A stretch of 64,000 nt of DNA from Candidatus Dormiibacterota bacterium (GCA_963804565.1 CAWDQV010000001.1:320214-384213); one strand, 5' to 3'. Shown: positions 1 through 32,292, counted from the stretch's first letter. Made by a program: numbers and translations. The notes: generated by a model not told the origin, from the sequence alone.

Positions 1-1470
<1,470 letters not shown>

Positions 1471-1608
1471 GGGCTAAAGTTCTCCAGGCAAGCGCGGACA
1501 TAAGGTGAACTTCACAGGTGGCGGAACGGAAATTCTTACCACATGTGCGACGACGCTCGCGGGCGCCCTTGGCCCCGCTCGAGTCCCCTCAGCGGGGAGA
1601 TTAGCTCA

Positions 1609-1991
1609 CTATTTGATTTCAGCTGTGGCGCCAGCCTCCTGAATCTTCTTGGCGACCGCCTCGGCCTCCTCCCGGTTGACCCCTTCCTTGACCGCCTTGG
1701 GCGCGCTATCGACCACGTCCTTGGCCTCCTTCAAGCCCAGTCCGGTGATCTCCCGGACCGCCTTGATTGCCGCGATCTTCTGGTCGCCTGCCGCCGTCAG
1801 GATGACCGAGAACTCGGTCTGCTCCTCGACCGCCGCCTCGCCAGCCGGGGTGCCGCCACCGCAACCGCCGCGACCGGGGCCGCCGCGGTGATCCCGTAGG
1901 TCTCCTCGATCTTCTTCTTGGCGTTCACCAGGTCCAGGACCGTCCAGGATCCCAGTGACTCCACGAAGTCGTCCACGCTTACCTTGGCCAA
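1609..1991 (-). CDS. rplL: 50S ribosomal protein L7/L12 (one frameshift)
   Basis: TTG start preceded by GAAGGAG. N-terminus [34 protein letters not shown] (ORF 1797..1991). The C-terminus ..[72 protein letters not shown] reads in another frame and ends at 1609. Length 383 nt is not a multiple of 3. Confidence 0.9.
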
Positions 1992-2606
1992 CTCTGCTTC
2001 TCCTTCATCTCTGCTGTCAAGTTATCTTGAATGGTCCGATCGCTCAGGCAGCGGCCGTCCGCCGACGCTTGCTCCTGGGCGTCTAGCAGTCCGACTAGGT
2101 CTCGGCTCGGCGCGTCAAGGAGCCCAGCCAACTGGGAGATCGGGGCTTCCAGGACGCCAAGCAATTGGGCGATCAGGACCTCCCTGGGCGGTAGGTCGGC
2201 GAGCTGACGCACCTCGGCGGCGTTGAGCAGCTGACCCTCAGCGATGCCGCCACGAACCATGTCGGTTCGCCTGTTGGCCCGGGCGTACTCGATCAGGAGC
2301 CGGGCCGGCGCCGAGATGTCCTCATAGCTGATGGCGATCGCCGTCGGCCCGGTCAACTGGAGGTTCAGCTCGCTGACCCCGGCTTGCTCCCCGGCCCGTC
2401 GGGCCAGGGTGTTCTTCAGCACCAGGTAATCGACCCCCGCCGTTCTCAGCGAGGCTCGCAGCTCCTGCAGTTGGGCCACGGTCAAGCCCGCGATAGTCGC
2501 TGAGCACAGCGCTGCGCATCCGGCCCAGCTTCTCGGCCAGGTCTGCGACCTGTTGCTGCTTGGCCTCAGGGATCACGGCCGCCCCGTGCTGGCCCTCGTC
2601 AGTCAT
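1979..2606 (-). CDS. rplJ: 50S ribosomal protein L10 (at least one frameshift; 3' end uncertain)
   Basis: [41 protein letters not shown] (in ORF 2322..2639) continues as [30 protein letters not shown].. (ORF 1979..2485). Position between rplA and rplL. Confidence 0.85.
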
Positions 2607-2792
2607 CTCTGCCTGCACCTCCCGGTTCCCGGGAGCCAACTTCCAGGCATCGACCGGCGACCGCCGAGGCGATCGTCCTGTCGGTAACCTGCGCGGGGTT
2701 CACTTTTGAGCAATATTGCCCCCGCGGTCTTGGGCTCCGTCGGACCGTGCTTGCTGGAACGGACGCTGAGTATACCCGGTGACGGGAGACCC

Positions 2793-3504
2793 TTAGTTGG
2801 AGCTGAGCCGACCCGCCAGCACCGGGTCGAGCTTCACGCTGGGCCCGATCGAGGGCGCCAGATAGGCGGCCCGTATGTAGGCGCCCTTGGCCGCCGACGG
2901 CTTGGCCTTGACGATCGCCTCCAACATCGCGGAGAGGTTCTCGCAGCAAAGCGTCGTCCTCGAAGCTGGTCTTGCCCACCGGGACATGGATGATCCCGTA
3001 CCGGTCGACCCGGAACTCCACCCGGCCCGCCTGGACGTCCCGGATAGCCTTGGCGATGTCGAAGGTCACCGTGCCCGCCTTGGGGTTGGGCATCAGTCCA
3101 CGCGGCCCAAGGACCTTGCCCAGCCTGCCCACCGAGCCCATCAGGTCGGGGGTGGCCAGGGCCACGTCGAAGTCGAGGAAGCCTTCCTGGACACGCTTCA
3201 CCAGGTCCTCGCCGCCGATGATCTCGGCGCCCGCCTCGCGGGCCTCGCGCTCCTTCTCCCCCTGGGCGAAGACCACGATCCGGCGGACCTTGCCGGTGCC
3301 ATGGGGAAGGACCACGCTGCCGCGCACCATCTGGTCGGCGTGGCGGGGGTCGACCCCGAGCCGGGCGTGCAGCTCGACGGTGCCGGGGAAGCTTGGAGGT
3401 GTTGACCGCCTTGACCAGGCGGACCCCCTCCTGGGGTCCACCAGCTCGTACTCCTCCAGCAGCTTGAGCGCGGCCATGTACTTCTTGCCGTGTCGTGCTG
3501 GCAT
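2793..3504 (-). CDS. rplA: 50S ribosomal protein L1 (about three frameshifts)
   Basis: [24 protein letters not shown].. then [47 protein letters not shown] (ORF 2599..3525). C-terminus [39 protein letters not shown] in ORF 2793..2987. Confidence 0.9.
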
Positions 3505-3564
3505 CCGTCTCCTCCCGTGGTCCATGCGGACGCCTCAGGCGTCCTCCCACAGCTGGCTTGCTTG

Positions 3565-3995
3565 CTAGTTGACTACTGTGACGCCCATCGACCGGGCGGT
3601 GCCCTCGACCATCCTCGCCGCGGCCTCCAGCTCGATGGCGTTGACGTCGGGCAGCTTGGTCTTGGCGATGGCCAGGGCCTGCTCACGGGTCAGCTCACCG
3701 GCCTCCTCGCGGGGTGGCTTGGCCGAGCCCTTCTCGATCCCCAGCGCCTTCTTGATCAGGTCCGTGGTCGGGCGGGGTCTTGGTGATGAAGGTGAAGGTG
3801 CGGTCCTCGAAGATGGTGATCTCCGCGGGGATCACCAGACCCGGACTGGGATTCGGTCTGCTCGTTGTAGGCACGGCAGAACTCCATGATGTTCACCTGG
3901 TGCTGGCCCAGCGCCGGCCCAATCGGGTAACCCGGAGTCGCCTTGCCCGCCTCGATGTTGAGGCGAAGCACCGCCTTGACCTTCTTCTTGCCCAC
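3565..3995 (-). CDS. rplK: 50S ribosomal protein L11 (one frameshift)
   Basis: [48 protein letters not shown] (ORF 3756..3995). Hand translation of another frame gives ..[53 protein letters not shown] ending at 3565. Confidence 0.9.
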
Positions 3996-26525: not shown

Positions 26526-27383
26526 TTACCGGTCGTGGTGAGCGGCGTTTGGGCGCGGGTCGCCGAGTGGGAAGGCGACATCGCAAACTAGGTCGTTTGG
26601 TCCGATATCGTCTGGCTCGACGAGGTATACCTCACGGCAGGACAATCGGCTGCCAGGGCGGGAGGTCACGTCGAGCGAGCACGCTACGGCGTCGTAGGCG
26701 GCAAGGATTACCGGGTAGTCCCATTGGGCCTTCGTAATTCTCGTGTATGCCTCCTCGTGGGATGGTTCGGTGCGAACACCGACGATGTTGTCGGGCTGTA
26801 TCTGCGGAGGGCAGGGCAGCACCGCCTCGAGCGGACCGTCGTGCTCGGCATCGACGACGCCGTGGAAGATCAGCATGAAGGGGCCGGTCGCAGGTGCTCC
26901 TCGCAGGCGGACGGCGAAGGCCTTCTTCGCCTCTCGCACGAAACCGTCGGTCTCGTTCCCGTGGAGGCGCCGCTGGATCGACATGACGCTCTGGGCCGGT
27001 ACGCGACGTACGTGGATCGGGAACATAGGGTCGCCTCCCTGGCTAAAAGTCGCTTGGATGTGGTGGATGAGCAACTGGCGATCAGCCTGGCGGCGCGCAA
27101 AGTCCGCGAGGATCTGGTCCAGTCGTCGGATTGCCAAATCGGAGTTCCGTGCGACATCGTCGAGCATGAGTTGGATGTCGGCGAGACTTAGATCTGCACC
27201 GCGCAGCAGACCGATCAGCTGCCCGGTTCGAATCTGCCTGGTCCCATAGCGCCGGTAGCCGGTGGAGGCGTCAGTGAGGGCCGGCGTGAGGAGACCGTTC
27301 CGGTCGTAGATACGTAGCGCCTTGGGCGTCAGACGCGTCCGGCGAGCAAACTCGCCGATCGACAGCCGATCGACGTTGTCCAC
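26526..27383 (-). CDS. MerR-family transcriptional regulator with GyrI-like effector-binding domain
   Basis: LSIGEFARRTRLTPKALRIYDRNGLLTPALTDASTGYRRYGTRQI (MerR HTH) plus a ~150-aa C-terminal GyrI-like region. Confidence 0.85.
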   Translation of the reverse strand: MDNVDRLSIGEFARRTRLTPKALRIYDRNGLLTPALTDASTGYRRYGTRQIRTGQLIGLLRGADLSLADIQLMLDDVARNSDLAIRRLDQILADFARRQADRQLLIHHIQATFSQGGDPMFPIHVRRVPAQSVMSIQRRLHGNETDGFVREAKKAFAVRLRGAPATGPFMLIFHGVVDAEHDGPLEAVLPCPPQIQPDNIVGVRTEPSHEEAYTRITKAQWDYPVILAAYDAVACSLDVTSRPGSRLSCREVYLVEPDDIGPNDLVCDVAFPLGDPRPNAAHHDR

Positions 27384-27780: not shown

Positions 27781-28149
27781 TTGACAAACGCAGCGCCGGA
27801 GGTACGGCCGGAAGTCGACTTCGAAACCTTTCAGAAGCTGGATATCCGCGGCGGCTTGGTGATCGAGGCGGGACCATTTCCCGAAGCTCGCAAGCCCGCC
27901 ATCAAGCTCAAGATCGACTTCGGCGCTCCGATTGGAATCCGCCAGTCGAGCGCTCAGCTCACCCTGCACTACACGCCGGAGGAGCTGGTTGGAAAGGCGG
28001 TGCTGGCCGTGGTCAACTTTCCGCCCCGCCGCATTGCCGGCTTCTCGAGTCAGGTCCTGGTGCTGGGGCTGATCGCCGCCGATGACCCGGGCGACGTCGT
28101 GCTGATTGGCCCGGACCGACCTGGCGCCGTTGGAAGGCGGCTCGGCTGA
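27781..28149 (+). CDS. csaA: tRNA-binding domain protein (CsaA/EMAP-like)
   Basis: ..FQKLDIRGGLVIEAGPFPEARKPAIKLKIDFG..IRQSSAQLTLHYTPEELVGKAVLAVVNFPPRRIAGFSSQVLVLG is the CsaA pattern. Confidence 0.8.
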   Translation: MTNAAPEVRPEVDFETFQKLDIRGGLVIEAGPFPEARKPAIKLKIDFGAPIGIRQSSAQLTLHYTPEELVGKAVLAVVNFPPRRIAGFSSQVLVLGLIAADDPGDVVLIGPDRPGAVGRRLG

Positions 28150-28249
28150 TCCCGCATGCCCAGACCACTCAGATTCGAAAGGTCGGCTCAGCAAGTAACA
28201 TCAGCTTTGGGTTAGTAATGGTTCCGCGGGGGCGGACAAGGAGACGGCA

Positions 28250-29342
28250 ATGAGCATCATGCGACGGATGTCCGACCTGTTCCAGCAGAAGGCCAACAAG
28301 GTCCTGGACCGGGCCGAGGACCCGGTGGATGCCCTCGACCTCTCCTACCAAAAGCAGCTCGAGGCACTCCAGCAGGTAAAGCGAAGCGTGGCCGAGGTAC
28401 TCACCTCGGAGAAGCGGCTGGAGATGCAGGCCGCCCAGCTGCAGCAAACCGCGGACAAATCCCAAGCACAGGCCAAGGTGGCTATCCAGCAGGGGCGGGA
28501 GGACCTTGCTCGTCTCGCCCTGACTAGGGCGCAGCAGGCTCAGGCTCAACTGGACGGGATGCAGGGGCAGATCCAGCAGCTCAAAGACCAGGAGCAGAAG
28601 CTAGAGGTGACCGCCCAGAAGCTGACCGCGAAGGTCGAGTCGTTCCGGACCCAGCGCGAGACCATAAAGGCCCAGTACTCGGCAGCGAAGGCCTCCACCC
28701 AGATCGGCGAAGCGGTCACCGGTCTATCCGAGCAGATGACCGATGTGAACCTCATGATGGAGCGGGCTCAGGACAAGACCCAGCAGATGCAGGCTCGCTC
28801 GGCCGCCATCGACTCCCTGGTCGACAGCGGCACCCTCGACACCATCGGAACCTCATCCGGTGACGACATCGACCGCCAGCTTCAGGGCCAGCTGACTGAT
28901 ACCCAGGTGGACGCCCAGCTCGCTGCTCATGAAGCAAGAGGTGCTCGCCAGCTCAGACGCTACCCCGAGGATCTCGGCCGCACCCGCACCGACTGTACCG
29001 GCCGCCACTAGCCCGCCGGCTACCAATTCCCCGGACGATCAGAACGTAGTGGTGCGTATCTCGGGCGAGGACCAGTACCGACTGAACGTGGCCGAACGAC
29101 CGCAATTGGAACCCCTCGATGCAACGCTCAGCAAAGCCATCGACAGCCAGGACCAAGGCGCCTATTCCAAGGCGCTCAGCGACCTCCTCAACTTTGTCCG
29201 CTCCCACGGCAGCAAGCTGCCCTCCGATTCCCTCGAGCCATCCGATGTGGTCCTGCCTTCAGAGGACATGACCCTGGACGAAGCGACCAAGCTTCTCTCG
29301 GATGGAGATGTCGTGGAGGCAGGCGCTCCGGCAGCTTCGTAA
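28250..29342 (+). CDS. pspA: PspA/IM30 family protein, paralog 1, with apparent C-terminal extra domain (frame switch near 28925-28930)
   Basis: MSIMRRMSDLFQQKANKVLDRAEDPVDALDLSYQKQLEALQQVKRSVAEVLTSEKRLEMQ.. is the PspA coiled-coil body. After ..VDAQLAA the protein-like sequence continues in ORF 28929..29342 (MKQEVLASSDA..), which parallels the paralog 2 tail (LSQLRHEVLAKPDDA..). Confidence 0.85.
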
Positions 29343-29419
29343 ATTGGACCGTCGAGGATAACTGGACCGCGCCGCGGACCCTTCCCGGGGCGGAGTGATT
29401 GTGCGGCCGGGGTCTCGGC

Positions 29420-29995
29420 TTAGACCGGAACGCCCCAGAGAGGGAACCAGGAGCTCAGGTTCGGCTCGACTGGGAGATCGTCCTTGACGATCGCCGCCAG
29501 GCGCAACTCTTCGGCGTTGTCTCGCTGTCGCTGGCCGGTTGGGACGAAGGGGTAGAACGTCCCCTGTTTGTAACCGTAGATCCAGTAGATCTTGCGAGAG
29601 CCCTGGAGGAAGGGGAACACCGAGGCCAGCAGACAGTCCCCCAGTCCTTCGTCGACCAGCCCCTGGGCCACGCCGTGCAGGGCGGCGATCAGGGACTCGA
29701 ACTCGGAACCCTCGATCACCAGCCAGGCAAAGCCCAGGTCGTCCTTGACCTCCCTAGCCTTCAGAGCGTCGCCGGGGGCGGTGGTGTCCTGGACCTGCAG
29801 CATGTCCATGGTGTCCTTGGTCAGCTGATCGAAGCGCCCCGGCGGCAGCGACTTGAAGAGGACACCCACCTGCCCGGCCGGCTGGAGCGATGCGGAGACC
29901 TGCATGGTCACCAGAGCGGTGCTCATGGCGAAGACCTTGTCTTCGTTGGGCTTGGGGAGCCGAGTCCGCCCGGTGAGCGAGTCCAGGAATCCCAA
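29420..29995 (-). CDS. Conserved hypothetical protein co-transcribed with htpX (possibly the PspA-associated PspAB family)
   Basis: Intact 191-aa ORF starting 13 nt after the htpX stop. The family name is from memory of Psp neighbourhood annotations and is not verified. Confidence 0.5.
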   Translation of the reverse strand: MGFLDSLTGRTRLPKPNEDKVFAMSTALVTMQVSASLQPAGQVGVLFKSLPPGRFDQLTKDTMDMLQVQDTTAPGDALKAREVKDDLGFAWLVIEGSEFESLIAALHGVAQGLVDEGLGDCLLASVFPFLQGSRKIYWIYGYKQGTFYPFVPTGQRQRDNAEELRLAAIVKDDLPVEPNLSSWFPLWGVPV

Positions 29996-30007
29996 AGGAG
30001 ATCTGCT

Positions 30008-30944
30008 CTAGCTGGAGAGCTCAGACTCCAGGTCGCGCAGCTTGGCCAGCCGGTGCTCCAACGAGGGATGGGTCGAAAAGACCTCCGCCAGGCTGCCCTT
30101 GCCGATGTGGACCGCGGGAAAGATCATCAGGGCGTTTGCACTCTGTACCTGGCGTAGATCTTGGGTCGGGATCCGGGACATCGTTCCGCTGATTTTCTGG
30201 AGCGCTGAGGCAAGCTGGGCGGGATCCCTGGTGATGATCGCCGAGCCCCGGTCGGCCGCGTATTCCCGGTAGCGCGAGAGGGCTCGAATCAGCACGAAGC
30301 TGATCGCCCAGACCACCGCCGCGACCAGGATGATCAAGATCATCCCTTGCCCTTCGCTGCGGCCGCCGCCACGCCCGCGACCGCCGTAGCCGGCGCCCAT
30401 CATGCCGAAGCCGCCGAACATCCCGAACCACATCCCCGACTGGACGATCAGCGCTGCCACCGTGGCGAAGAAGCTGGCCATAGCCATGACCTTCACGTCC
30501 TTGTGGATCACGTGGCTCAACTCGTGGGCCAGGACAGCCTCGAGTTCCTGGGGCTCGAGCTGGGAAAGGATCCCGCGTAGTAACCGCCATCACTGCGTGC
30601 TTGGGATTGCGTCCAGTGGCCAGCGCGTTGGGGACCGGAGAAGGAATCACCGCGATTTGAGGCATTGGCGTTCCGGTGATCTGGCAGAGGCGACCCACGA
30701 TGTCGAACAACTGCGGCTGCTGCTGAGCTGTCACCAGGTGAGCGTGGAGACTGCTCAGGACCAGCTTGTCGGAAAAGAAGTACTGGGCGACCAGCAAGAT
30801 CGCCACCACCACCACGATCAGGGCTACGCCGGTGTGGAGCAGCAACAAGACCCCGATAAAGGCCAGATAGACGAGCGCCAGCAAGAAAAGCGCCAGAAAC
30901 ATCCGGGCAGTCAGGCCAGCATCGGCGCCCAGTTTTCGGTGCAT
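30008..30944 (-). CDS. htpX: M48-family zinc metalloprotease HtpX (one frameshift near 30572-30580)
   Basis: N-terminal TM part in ORF 30021..30944 (..PNALATGRNPKHAVMAVTT). The other frame gives ..GILSQLEPQELEAVLAHELSHVIHKDV (HExxH) ..YREYAADRGSA..HPSLEHRLAKL (ORF 30008..30520). Confidence 0.85.
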
Positions 30945-30961
30945 ACGTCCCCTATATACCC

Positions 30962-30988
30962 GTTTCCACTGGATTTACGCGTGGAACC
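30962..30988. promoter_or_regulatory. Inverted repeat GTTTCCAC-N11-GTGGAACC in the htpX / pspA-2 divergent spacer (candidate operator)
   Basis: Read directly; 7 of 8 positions pair. Lies 18-44 nt upstream of the htpX ATG (30944), next to an AT-rich TATATA at 30953-30958. Function is inferred only. Confidence 0.3.
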
Positions 30989-31203
30989 GTCATCCTCCAC
31001 CCGCCGGCTGGGAATCAGCTGGGATTTCCCGTCGACTCGCTCCAGAGAGAAGCCGGCTCAGCCGTTCGGCTCGATCGGTGGCACCTGGGATCGCTCCGCG
31101 GCGGGGCACTTCCTCTGTGAGCGGCCCCGATCTGGAGTCGGCGCTAACATGTCGGCGACGAACGCGGCTGCTGAGACTCTGACCTGAGGGAGCGCTTTAC
31201 ATA

Positions 31204-32022
31204 GTGGAACTGATCTACATCGTGATCGCCGTGGTCGTGCTGGGAGGCGCCTCGCGTACTTCGGTTGGCAAGCGCACCGTCAACTTGGCCCAGCAGAAGA
31301 TCACCCACCTGCTCAACCGAGCCGAGAACCCCGTCGAGGCGCTCGACCTCGCCTACCAGAAGCAGATCGAGGCGCTGCAGCAGGTCAAGCGTGGCGTGGC
31401 CGAGGTGGTGACCTCGGAAAAGCGCCTGGAGCTTCAGGCAGCCCAACTGCGGCAGAACCAGGTGAAGCTACAGGGCCAGGCCAAGCTGGCGGTGCAGCAG
31501 GGGCGGGATGACTTGGCGAGGCTGGCGCTGACGCGGTCCCAGGCTGCCGACGTCCAGCTTCAGTCTCTTGATCAGCAGATCCAACAGCTCAAGGACCAGG
31601 AACAGAAACTGCAGCTCACCGCTCAAAAGTTGCAAGGCCGGGTTGAGTCATTTCGGACTCAGAAGGACACCCTGAAGGCGCAGTACTCCGCCGCCCAGGC
31701 GTCCGCTCGAATCGGAGAGACGGTCACGGGCATCTCCACCGACATGACCGACGTCAACCTCATGTTGGAGCGGGCCCAGGACAAAACCTCCCAGATGCAG
31801 GCCCGAGCGGCGGCCATCGACGAACTCGTCTCGTCGGGGACCCTCGATGCGCTGGGAAGCTCTGGCGATGACATCGACCGCCAGTTGCAGGCGGTATCTG
31901 GGGACGCTGCCATCGAGGCGCAACTCAGCCAATTGCGGCATGAGGTGCTGGCCAAGCCCGACGACGCCGCCAAGCTCACCACACCGGACCCGTCAACGAA
32001 GCCGCCGAAAGAGGGAGATTAG
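31204..32022 (+). CDS. pspA: PspA/IM30 family protein, paralog 2, with hydrophobic N-terminal segment
   Basis: Intact 272-aa ORF (GTG start). ..KRTVNLAQQKITHLLNRAENPVEALDLAYQKQIEALQQVKRGVAEVVTSEKRLELQ.. is highly similar to paralog 1. Confidence 0.88.
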   Translation: MELIYIVIAVVVLGGASRTSVGKRTVNLAQQKITHLLNRAENPVEALDLAYQKQIEALQQVKRGVAEVVTSEKRLELQAAQLRQNQVKLQGQAKLAVQQGRDDLARLALTRSQAADVQLQSLDQQIQQLKDQEQKLQLTAQKLQGRVESFRTQKDTLKAQYSAAQASARIGETVTGISTDMTDVNLMLERAQDKTSQMQARAAAIDELVSSGTLDALGSSGDDIDRQLQAVSGDAAIEAQLSQLRHEVLAKPDDAAKLTTPDPSTKPPKEGD

Positions 32023-32025
32023 GGA

Positions 32026-32292
32026 ATGCTGCACGCCGTCGCATTTATCGTCATTGGACTGGTCATCGGCGCCTTCTTCATCCGCAAGGCTCGGGCAACC
32101 GCTGCGGTCATCCGAGTCGTCGGCGGCTTGATAGGGTCACTTGGTGGGGGGTTCATCTCACTGGCCGCCCTGGGTAGCAAGACTGACACGGGGAAGTACG
32201 GATCGATCGTGATCGCGATTGTGGTGGCGATCGTGTTCGCTGCGATCGCGTCGGCGATCAGCAACGTGGCGCAGGTTAGCGGCAGGAACTGA
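32026..32292 (+). CDS. Small three-TM membrane protein, GlsB/YeaQ/YmgE-like
   Basis: 88 aa. IVIGLVIGAFF / VVGGLIGSLGGGFISLAAL / GSIVIAIVVAIVFAAIASAI. Starts 4 nt after the pspA-2 stop. Confidence 0.55.
   Translation: MLHAVAFIVIGLVIGAFFIRKARATAAVIRVVGGLIGSLGGGFISLAALGSKTDTGKYGSIVIAIVVAIVFAAIASAISNVAQVSGRN

Follow-up and report, generated by a model that had tools for sequence, protein, structure and literature searches.

Does the close packing of two pspA genes around a membrane protease gene mark a single membrane-stress system, and if so, which one? The question is raised by positions 28250-32292 of a 64,000-nt stretch of DNA (CAWDQV010000001.1:320214-384213; hereafter the window, meaning the whole stretch analyzed) from a metagenome-assembled genome (MAG) of an uncultured soil bacterium of the Dormibacteria (Ca. 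Dormibacterota; 2.43 Mb, 4 contigs, estimated completeness 80%). PspA/IM30 proteins are ESCRT-III-like membrane-remodeling polymers, and HtpX is an inner-membrane zinc protease engaged in membrane-protein quality control; at this locus pspA-1 and pspA-2 flank htpX and a gene for a 191-aa protein, identified here as pspAB, and pspA-2 is followed by a gene for a small transmembrane (TM) protein. We find a real, conserved membrane-stress gene cluster whose arrangement has been described before (Ravi et al. 2024, mSystems 9:e00847-23, PMC11237479), and we consider it probable that it represents the Dormibacteria copy of that four-part system, extended by a lineage-specific unit of pspA-2 and the TM gene, and that the two frame breaks in its assembled sequence are assembly errors; how the system would work we infer. 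Thirty related loci, numbered with the prefix L and fetched from Dormibacteria, other Chloroflexota, Actinomycetota, and Ktedonobacterales, served for comparison.

Identity of the PspA-PspAA and HtpX-PspAB Proteins

Listing of open reading frames (ORFs) and direct reading of the DNA place all six coding regions at the coordinates and on the strands given in the initial annotation, and the layout it described holds as well: pspA-1 converges on htpX and the 191-aa gene, htpX diverges from pspA-2, and the small TM gene directly follows the latter. What did not stand is the reading of pspA-1 and htpX as single open frames, each being split by one base:

28250..28927, plus strand: pspA-1, encoding the ESCRT-III-like PspA/IM30 domain at the N-terminal side of a PspA-linker-PspAA fusion (PF04012, E 9.6e-24)
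28929..29342, plus strand: Pro/Ala/Thr-rich linker and PspAA domain (domain at ~29046-29312), in frame +1 relative to pspA-1
29420..29995, minus strand: pspAB, 191-aa soluble alpha/beta protein, TTG start, 12 nt past the htpX stop (PF22742, E 2.6e-60)
30008..30574, minus strand: htpX, C-terminal part with the M48 catalytic domain and C-terminal TM segments, HELSH at 30526-30512 (PF01435, E 2.8e-23)
30576..30944, minus strand: htpX, N-terminal part, comprising two TM segments and the first portion of the M48 domain (82-94% identity to same-genus orthologs)
31204..32022, plus strand: pspA-2, PspA/IM30 paralog extended at its N terminus by a hydrophobic stretch of ~17 residues (31204 to ~31260; PF04012, E 3.9e-21)
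32026..32292, plus strand: 88-aa membrane protein with three TM segments, gene 3 nt past the end of pspA-2, weakly GlsB/YeaQ-like

The PspA body of pspA-1 scores 84.7 bits on PF04012 (cut-off 33.9; profile positions 2-194 of 220) and is 88-97% identical to its orthologs within the genus. The extra domain beginning after about residue 230, for which a correspondence to PspAA had been raised together with a profile search to decide it, is PspAA: the ORF that carries it matches PF22743 with 90 bits (cut-off 27; E 1.2e-25) over its residues 40-128, or profile positions 1-89 of 92. PspAA lies directly after the PspA domain, and the two form one ORF in all Dormibacteria relatives, as in L003, where a single 367-aa ORF has both the PspA_IM30 and the PspAA Pfam domains; in the window this ORF is interrupted by an extra base. 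At Actinomycetota loci pspA and pspAA are separate neighboring genes.

The search proposed for the 191-aa protein likewise returned the suspected family, with PF22742 aligning end to end (residues 1-191 on profile positions 1-189 of 189; 203.9 bits, cut-off 27) and 37 invariant columns in an alignment of 18 PspAB sequences. Its AlphaFold2 model (pLDDT 77, pTM 0.74) matched no fold in the PDB at E<1e-3. The catalytic part of htpX scores 83.2 bits on PF01435 (cut-off 20.3) with the HEXXH zinc site present, and shares 79-92% identity with same-genus orthologs, in all of which the N- and C-terminal parts are contiguous; the intact ortholog in L002 matches the NCBIfam HtpX model NF002669 with 412 bits (cut-off 341).

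PspAA and PspAB were defined by comparative genomics (PMC11237479), PspAA being mostly standalone and at times fused to the PspA C terminus in Actinobacteria and Chloroflexi, which agrees with the neighborhoods named in the initial annotation. The same survey describes a context of PspA-PspAA with a TM metallopeptidase and PspAB, with examples in Thermobifida (Tfu_1009), Frankia (Franean1_2534), Moorella (MOTHE_c06560), and Methanosarcina, which is sometimes joined by a SHOCT-like third gene; Streptomyces coelicolor is also listed there as a carrier.

Linkage and Co-inheritance

Comparison of gene neighborhoods bears out the linkage of pspA with htpX that had been predicted to recur if the module were genuine. 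In all 29 loci with available upstream sequence (Dormibacteria, other Chloroflexota, Actinomycetota, and Ktedonobacterales) htpX stands directly upstream of pspAB, and the PspA-PspAA fusion converges on htpX-pspAB in every Dormibacteria locus, with PspA(-PspAA) convergent in several Actinomycetota and Ktedonobacterales loci too. PspAB occurs in 19/19 genomes of the genus and in 0/12 of the sister family.

A sample of 151 genomes from the GTDB phylum contains 31 with PspAB and 33 with PspAA. The two families coincide in 28; PspAB occurs without PspAA in 3 and PspAA without PspAB in 5, and the remaining 115 lack both (Fisher p = 4e-22 for co-occurrence, uncorrected for phylogeny). The three PspAB-only genomes include two that are <82% complete and one with 420 contigs. 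Among the 28 genomes that have both families, 14 carry the PspAA and PspAB genes far apart or on different contigs, so that their co-inheritance is independent of adjacency; inheritance together even when unlinked argues for a functional dependency between the two, and it is the best support for such a dependency found here.

The Second PspA Unit

The two PspA bodies, described from the outset as very similar, are 69% identical across 224 residues, and the 2.43-Mb genome has no other PspA_IM30 gene. PspA-2 scores 76.1 bits on PF04012 (cut-off 33.9; profile positions 4-216 of 220), ends where the linker of PspA-1 starts, and has no PspAA domain. All PspA-2 orthologs have a hydrophobic stretch of ~17 residues ahead of a conserved RRxVNLxQQK, which aligns with the PspA-1 N terminus; in most of them the stretch is preceded by a Shine-Dalgarno sequence and a GTG or ATG start codon, L002 being without an equivalent start. 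The available text of the 2024 survey (PMC11237479) makes no mention of a PspA with its own anchor. Identity between the PspA-1 and PspA-2 paralogs is 64-72% within the genus vs. ~50% to actinobacterial PspA, which suggests that they arose by duplication inside this lineage.

The label GlsB/YeaQ-like, given earlier to the small TM protein, holds as a resemblance and fails as a family assignment. At 82-88 aa with three predicted Gly-rich TM segments, the family here resembles GlsB/YeaQ/YmgE (PF04226, Transgly_assoc) in size and topology and gives weak near-full-length matches to PRK10457 and PF04226, but the scores fall under both curated cut-offs (18.2 bits vs. 25.3 for PF04226; E 0.007 and 16.9 bits vs. 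129 for NCBIfam PRK10457), and it is confined to 2/98 genera sampled, with no PspA gene adjacent in the other genus. Of its orthologs, 5/15 match PF04226 at E<0.05 (best E 2.5e-4), and their alignment has 24 invariant columns, including GKYGS. Wherever a same-genus locus includes pspA-2, the small TM gene adjoins it, and the same pairing is seen at two more distant loci.

pspA-2 itself adjoins htpX only in the window and in four relatives (L003, L006, L016, and L019). A heterodimer-type ABC exporter gene pair (ABC_membrane plus ABC_tran; 577 and 596 aa) occupies L002:1453-4976 and is also found at the equivalent site in L001, L004, L005, L008, L012-L014, L018, and L030; no close copy of the pair exists elsewhere in the source genome (<=45% identity).

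One System or Independent Neighbors

Several points weigh against the assignment made above. In L020-L022 htpX and pspAB are present, but the flanks fetched there, which measure 1.7-6 kb according to locus and side, contain no PspA-PspAA gene; L020 does have a pspA-2-like gene ~1.1 kb upstream of htpX. In ~10 of 16 same-genus loci the two ABC exporter genes lie between pspA-2 and htpX, which makes it doubtful that pspA-2 belongs to one module with htpX. The fold of PspAB offers no functional lead, its best PDB match being a generic ferredoxin-like alpha+beta structure (E 7.5e-3, TM 0.34). Support for the view that the two frame breaks are artefacts is statistical rather than direct. Finally, a literature search found no experiment on PspAA, PspAB, or a link of either to HtpX, and the available text of PMC11237479 reports no functional test.

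The flanks of L020-L022 and the intervening exporter genes would also suit genes that are mere neighbors, htpX-pspAB being a protease unit independent of PspA and the two pspA genes encoding membrane-stress effectors in their own right; so would the unlinked state of PspAA and PspAB in half of the genomes that have both, and the division of the cluster into three separate transcription units for which no shared operator was found, an inverted repeat near htpX in the window not being conserved. Such independence is hard to reconcile with the strong co-occurrence at genome level, PspAA being present in 28/31 PspAB-positive vs. 5/120 other genomes, or with the recurrence of the convergent arrangement in Dormibacteria, Actinomycetota, and Ktedonobacterales and, according to PMC11237479, of the arrangement in Frankia, Moorella, and Methanosarcina, and we judge it unlikely. 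We retain the reading as a copy of the four-part system, and the doubling of PspA around the protease, on which the initial annotation laid weight, is the weaker idea beside the PspA-htpX-pspAB linkage: both PspA genes do flank htpX in the window, but the adjacency of pspA-2 to htpX does not extend across the relatives.

Frame Breaks in pspA-1 and htpX

28926..28929 (near 28928), plus strand: frame break, one extra base in pspA-1/PspAA; window GCT GCT C ATG AAG (GCTCATGAAG), relatives GCT-C/A-TG-AAG, as in GCT CTG AAG or GCC ATG AAG
30575, minus strand: frame break, one extra base in htpX; window ACG C GGG ATC (ACGCGGGATC), relatives AC(C/G/T)-GGG-ATC (T-G-I)

As assembled, the PspA frame of pspA-1 runs from 28250 to 29011 and the PspAA-bearing frame, shifted by +1, from 28929 to 29342, while the frame of htpX changes 16 codons ahead of the HELSH zinc site and divides the gene into an N-terminal part of 123 codons and a catalytic part of 188 codons. 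A single uninterrupted htpX ORF is therefore absent from the window as assembled, and intact in all relatives. DNA alignments show that each break consists of one extra base relative to every aligned relative, at a variable wobble position, and in every relative PspA and PspAA share one frame, as do both parts of htpX. Past each break the sequence is fully open, with 70-92% identity to relatives. The assembly as a whole points the same way, its completeness being estimated at only 80% in just 4 contigs.

Some 10 further breaks of this kind occur in the window when it is compared with continuous ORFs of same-genus genomes, nine of them within its first 4 kb (300-3900). One frame-breaking indel in the window lies at ~38530. 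In a sample of the genome compared with the continuous ORFs of a complete same-genus chromosome, 29 breaks were counted in 219 kb, or one per 7.6 kb; at this rate ~0.5 would be expected in the 4-kb cluster, and at least two would occur ~10% of the time. Because the extra bases are missing from relatives, the downstream sequence is intact, and breaks are frequent genome-wide, both are most likely assembly indel errors of a long-read-type MAG, on a basis that is statistical and not direct, and the true products are most likely a PspA-linker-PspAA protein of ~363 aa and an HtpX of ~311 aa. At one indel per 7.6 kb, a "split gene", a "missing start", or a "frameshift" found elsewhere in this genome is suspect as well.

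Were the breaks real mutations, PspAA would be lost from pspA-1, htpX would be a pseudogene cut before its HEXXH motif, and the cluster would be undergoing inactivation. If the window's first 4 kb are set aside, three or four breaks are left in it, and the 4-kb cluster does contain two of these; yet two or more in 4 kb are expected about one time in ten at the genome rate, the genome-wide rate would leave ~12% of genes broken, too large a share to be believed of a free-living organism with a 2.4-Mb genome, neither break is followed by a second lesion in a downstream sequence that retains its similarity to relatives, and the system is kept in 19/19 genomes of the genus. We regard this explanation as very improbable. 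Programmed recoding, in which a +1 ribosomal frameshift or four-base decoding would yield the full-length proteins, is hardly credible at all and was ruled out: both breaks would need the same +1 shift, and CGGG read as Gly (ACG CGGG ATC to T-G-I) gives back the TTGIL motif of the relatives exactly, but a general CGGN-as-Gly reading affects 11 in-frame CGG codons and makes nonsense of the htpX translation, CGG does not occur at the pspA-1 site, the extra base is found in no relative at either site and hence shows no conservation, other parts of the window have similar one-base insertions on either coding strand, and no unusual tRNA was found in the window.

Frame changes of the same artefact kind are also seen in htpX, pspAB, and pspA of L026 and L028, both nanopore-type long-read MAGs of Actinomycetes.

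Putative Promoters and Neighboring Features

28196..28201, plus strand: TAACAT, -10-like hexamer of a putative promoter, ~50 nt upstream of pspA-1 in a conserved block (AGTAACATCAG..TGGGTTAG)
30953..30958, minus strand: TATATA, -10-like box in the conserved block AAACGGGTATATAGGGG; the box ends 8 nt and the block 5 nt before the htpX ATG
31145..31150, plus strand: TAACAT in the conserved GCGCTAACATGAC block ~55 nt upstream of pspA-2, putative -10 with the same hexamer as pspA-1

The TAACAT block is conserved in 19/19 upstream regions orthologous to that of pspA-1, and its counterpart ahead of pspA-2 in 14/14 regions, with minor variants such as TACCAT and TAATAT; both blocks are putative promoter elements. 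The AAACGGGTATATAGGGG block (window 30945-30965) is almost invariant across Dormibacteria loci, and a related GGGTATA(T/C/G) box stands at a similar position in the distant loci L020-L022. The distance of 8 nt from the TATATA box to the ATG leads us to predict a leaderless or near-leaderless htpX mRNA. A scan for consensus sigma-70 promoters and a search for intergenic terminators found none, and the structure of the convergent spacer (29343-29419) is not unusual.

Two further candidates were set aside. An inverted repeat upstream of htpX (TTCCAC-N11-GTGGAA), considered as a shared operator, is present in the window but not conserved among relatives. Just 5' of the pspA-1 Shine-Dalgarno sequence (window 28220-28240) lies a short GC hairpin, TCCGC-GGGG-GCGGA, which recurs at that site in relatives with other stem sequences; as an RNA element of the 5' untranslated region it was rejected, since RNAalifold gave no consensus on a MAFFT alignment and z ranged from -1.6 to +1 against shuffles.

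In agreement with the initial annotation, no PspF-type match lies in the window, and elsewhere in the genome only weak generic AAA+ matches to Sigma54_activat appear. PspC had no match anywhere in the genome, and PspB was not searched for; the locus does not qualify as a classical Psp system (PspF-PspABC). A candidate regulator of the MerR family (26526-27383) has only generic MerR-family helix-turn-helix matches. An Rfam search returned two tRNAs as its sole matches. Between the tRNA-Tyr/tRNA-Thr pair and pspA-1 lies a CsaA-type tRNA-binding/chaperone gene (27781-28149), whose position is kept in several relatives.

Discussion

The locus shares with the published system the same four Pfam families, a metallopeptidase gene directly upstream of PspAB, and a PspA-PspAA fusion such as occurs in some Actinobacteria and Chloroflexi (PMC11237479); as there, neither PspF in the window nor PspC in the genome was found, PspB lying outside the search. 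It departs from that system in that the two dyads converge, whereas there they form one co-directional operon, in that no SHOCT-like third gene is seen, and in the addition of a PspA paralog with a hydrophobic N terminus and a small three-TM gene. Dormibacteria are not named as a host in the available text of the survey (PMC11237479).

Two further systems invite comparison. HtpX of Escherichia coli is likewise an M48 protease with HEXXH and N-terminal TM segments, and the intact ortholog here matches the NCBIfam HtpX equivalog; in E. coli, however, htpX is monocistronic and has no PspAB partner, whereas here pspAB always follows an htpX that is apparently leaderless. For the second unit an analogy may be drawn with LiaI-LiaH of Bacillus subtilis, in which a PspA-family gene and a gene for a small polytopic membrane protein also share one operon. 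Such a pairing fits recruitment of a PspA polymer to the membrane, although here the small-protein gene lies downstream, reversing the order, the small protein has no LiaI-LiaF-TM match, PspA-2 has a hydrophobic N terminus of its own, and no LiaFSR-type regulator is nearby.

Like the initial annotation, we infer a coordinated membrane-repair module, and propose that it may work as follows. PspA-1 would polymerize on membrane that is damaged or curved, forming an ESCRT-III-like coat, and the PspAA domain would be displayed on this polymer via the flexible Pro/Ala/Thr linker. Soluble PspAB, made from the same mRNA as HtpX, would link the PspA coat or its assembly state to HtpX, which would in turn clear damaged membrane proteins at the lesion. 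PspA-2, held at the membrane by its hydrophobic N-terminal helix, and the co-translated small TM protein would constitute a second, resident PspA unit with LiaI-LiaH-like logic. The weakest link of the proposal is the bridging step, in which PspAB would connect HtpX to the PspA coat.

A bolder version, which we hold to be doubtful, would make PspAB a physical adaptor that docks HtpX on PspAA-decorated PspA polymers, with the duplicated PspA, in which a hydrophobic anchor takes the place of PspAA, and its private three-TM protein forming a second, permanently resident coat. If PspAB were such an adaptor, one bacterial assembly would both seal a lesion and degrade the damaged proteins there.

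Taken as it stands, the locus is an ordinary instance of a known system with a minor lineage-specific addition. With it, a system so far known through comparative genomics alone gains a Dormibacteria member, together with quantitative support in the finding that PspAA and PspAB are co-inherited even when they are not adjacent. A modest variation peculiar to the lineage, the pairing of a membrane-anchored PspA-2 with a small TM protein could be of interest for work on bacterial ESCRT-III-like proteins.

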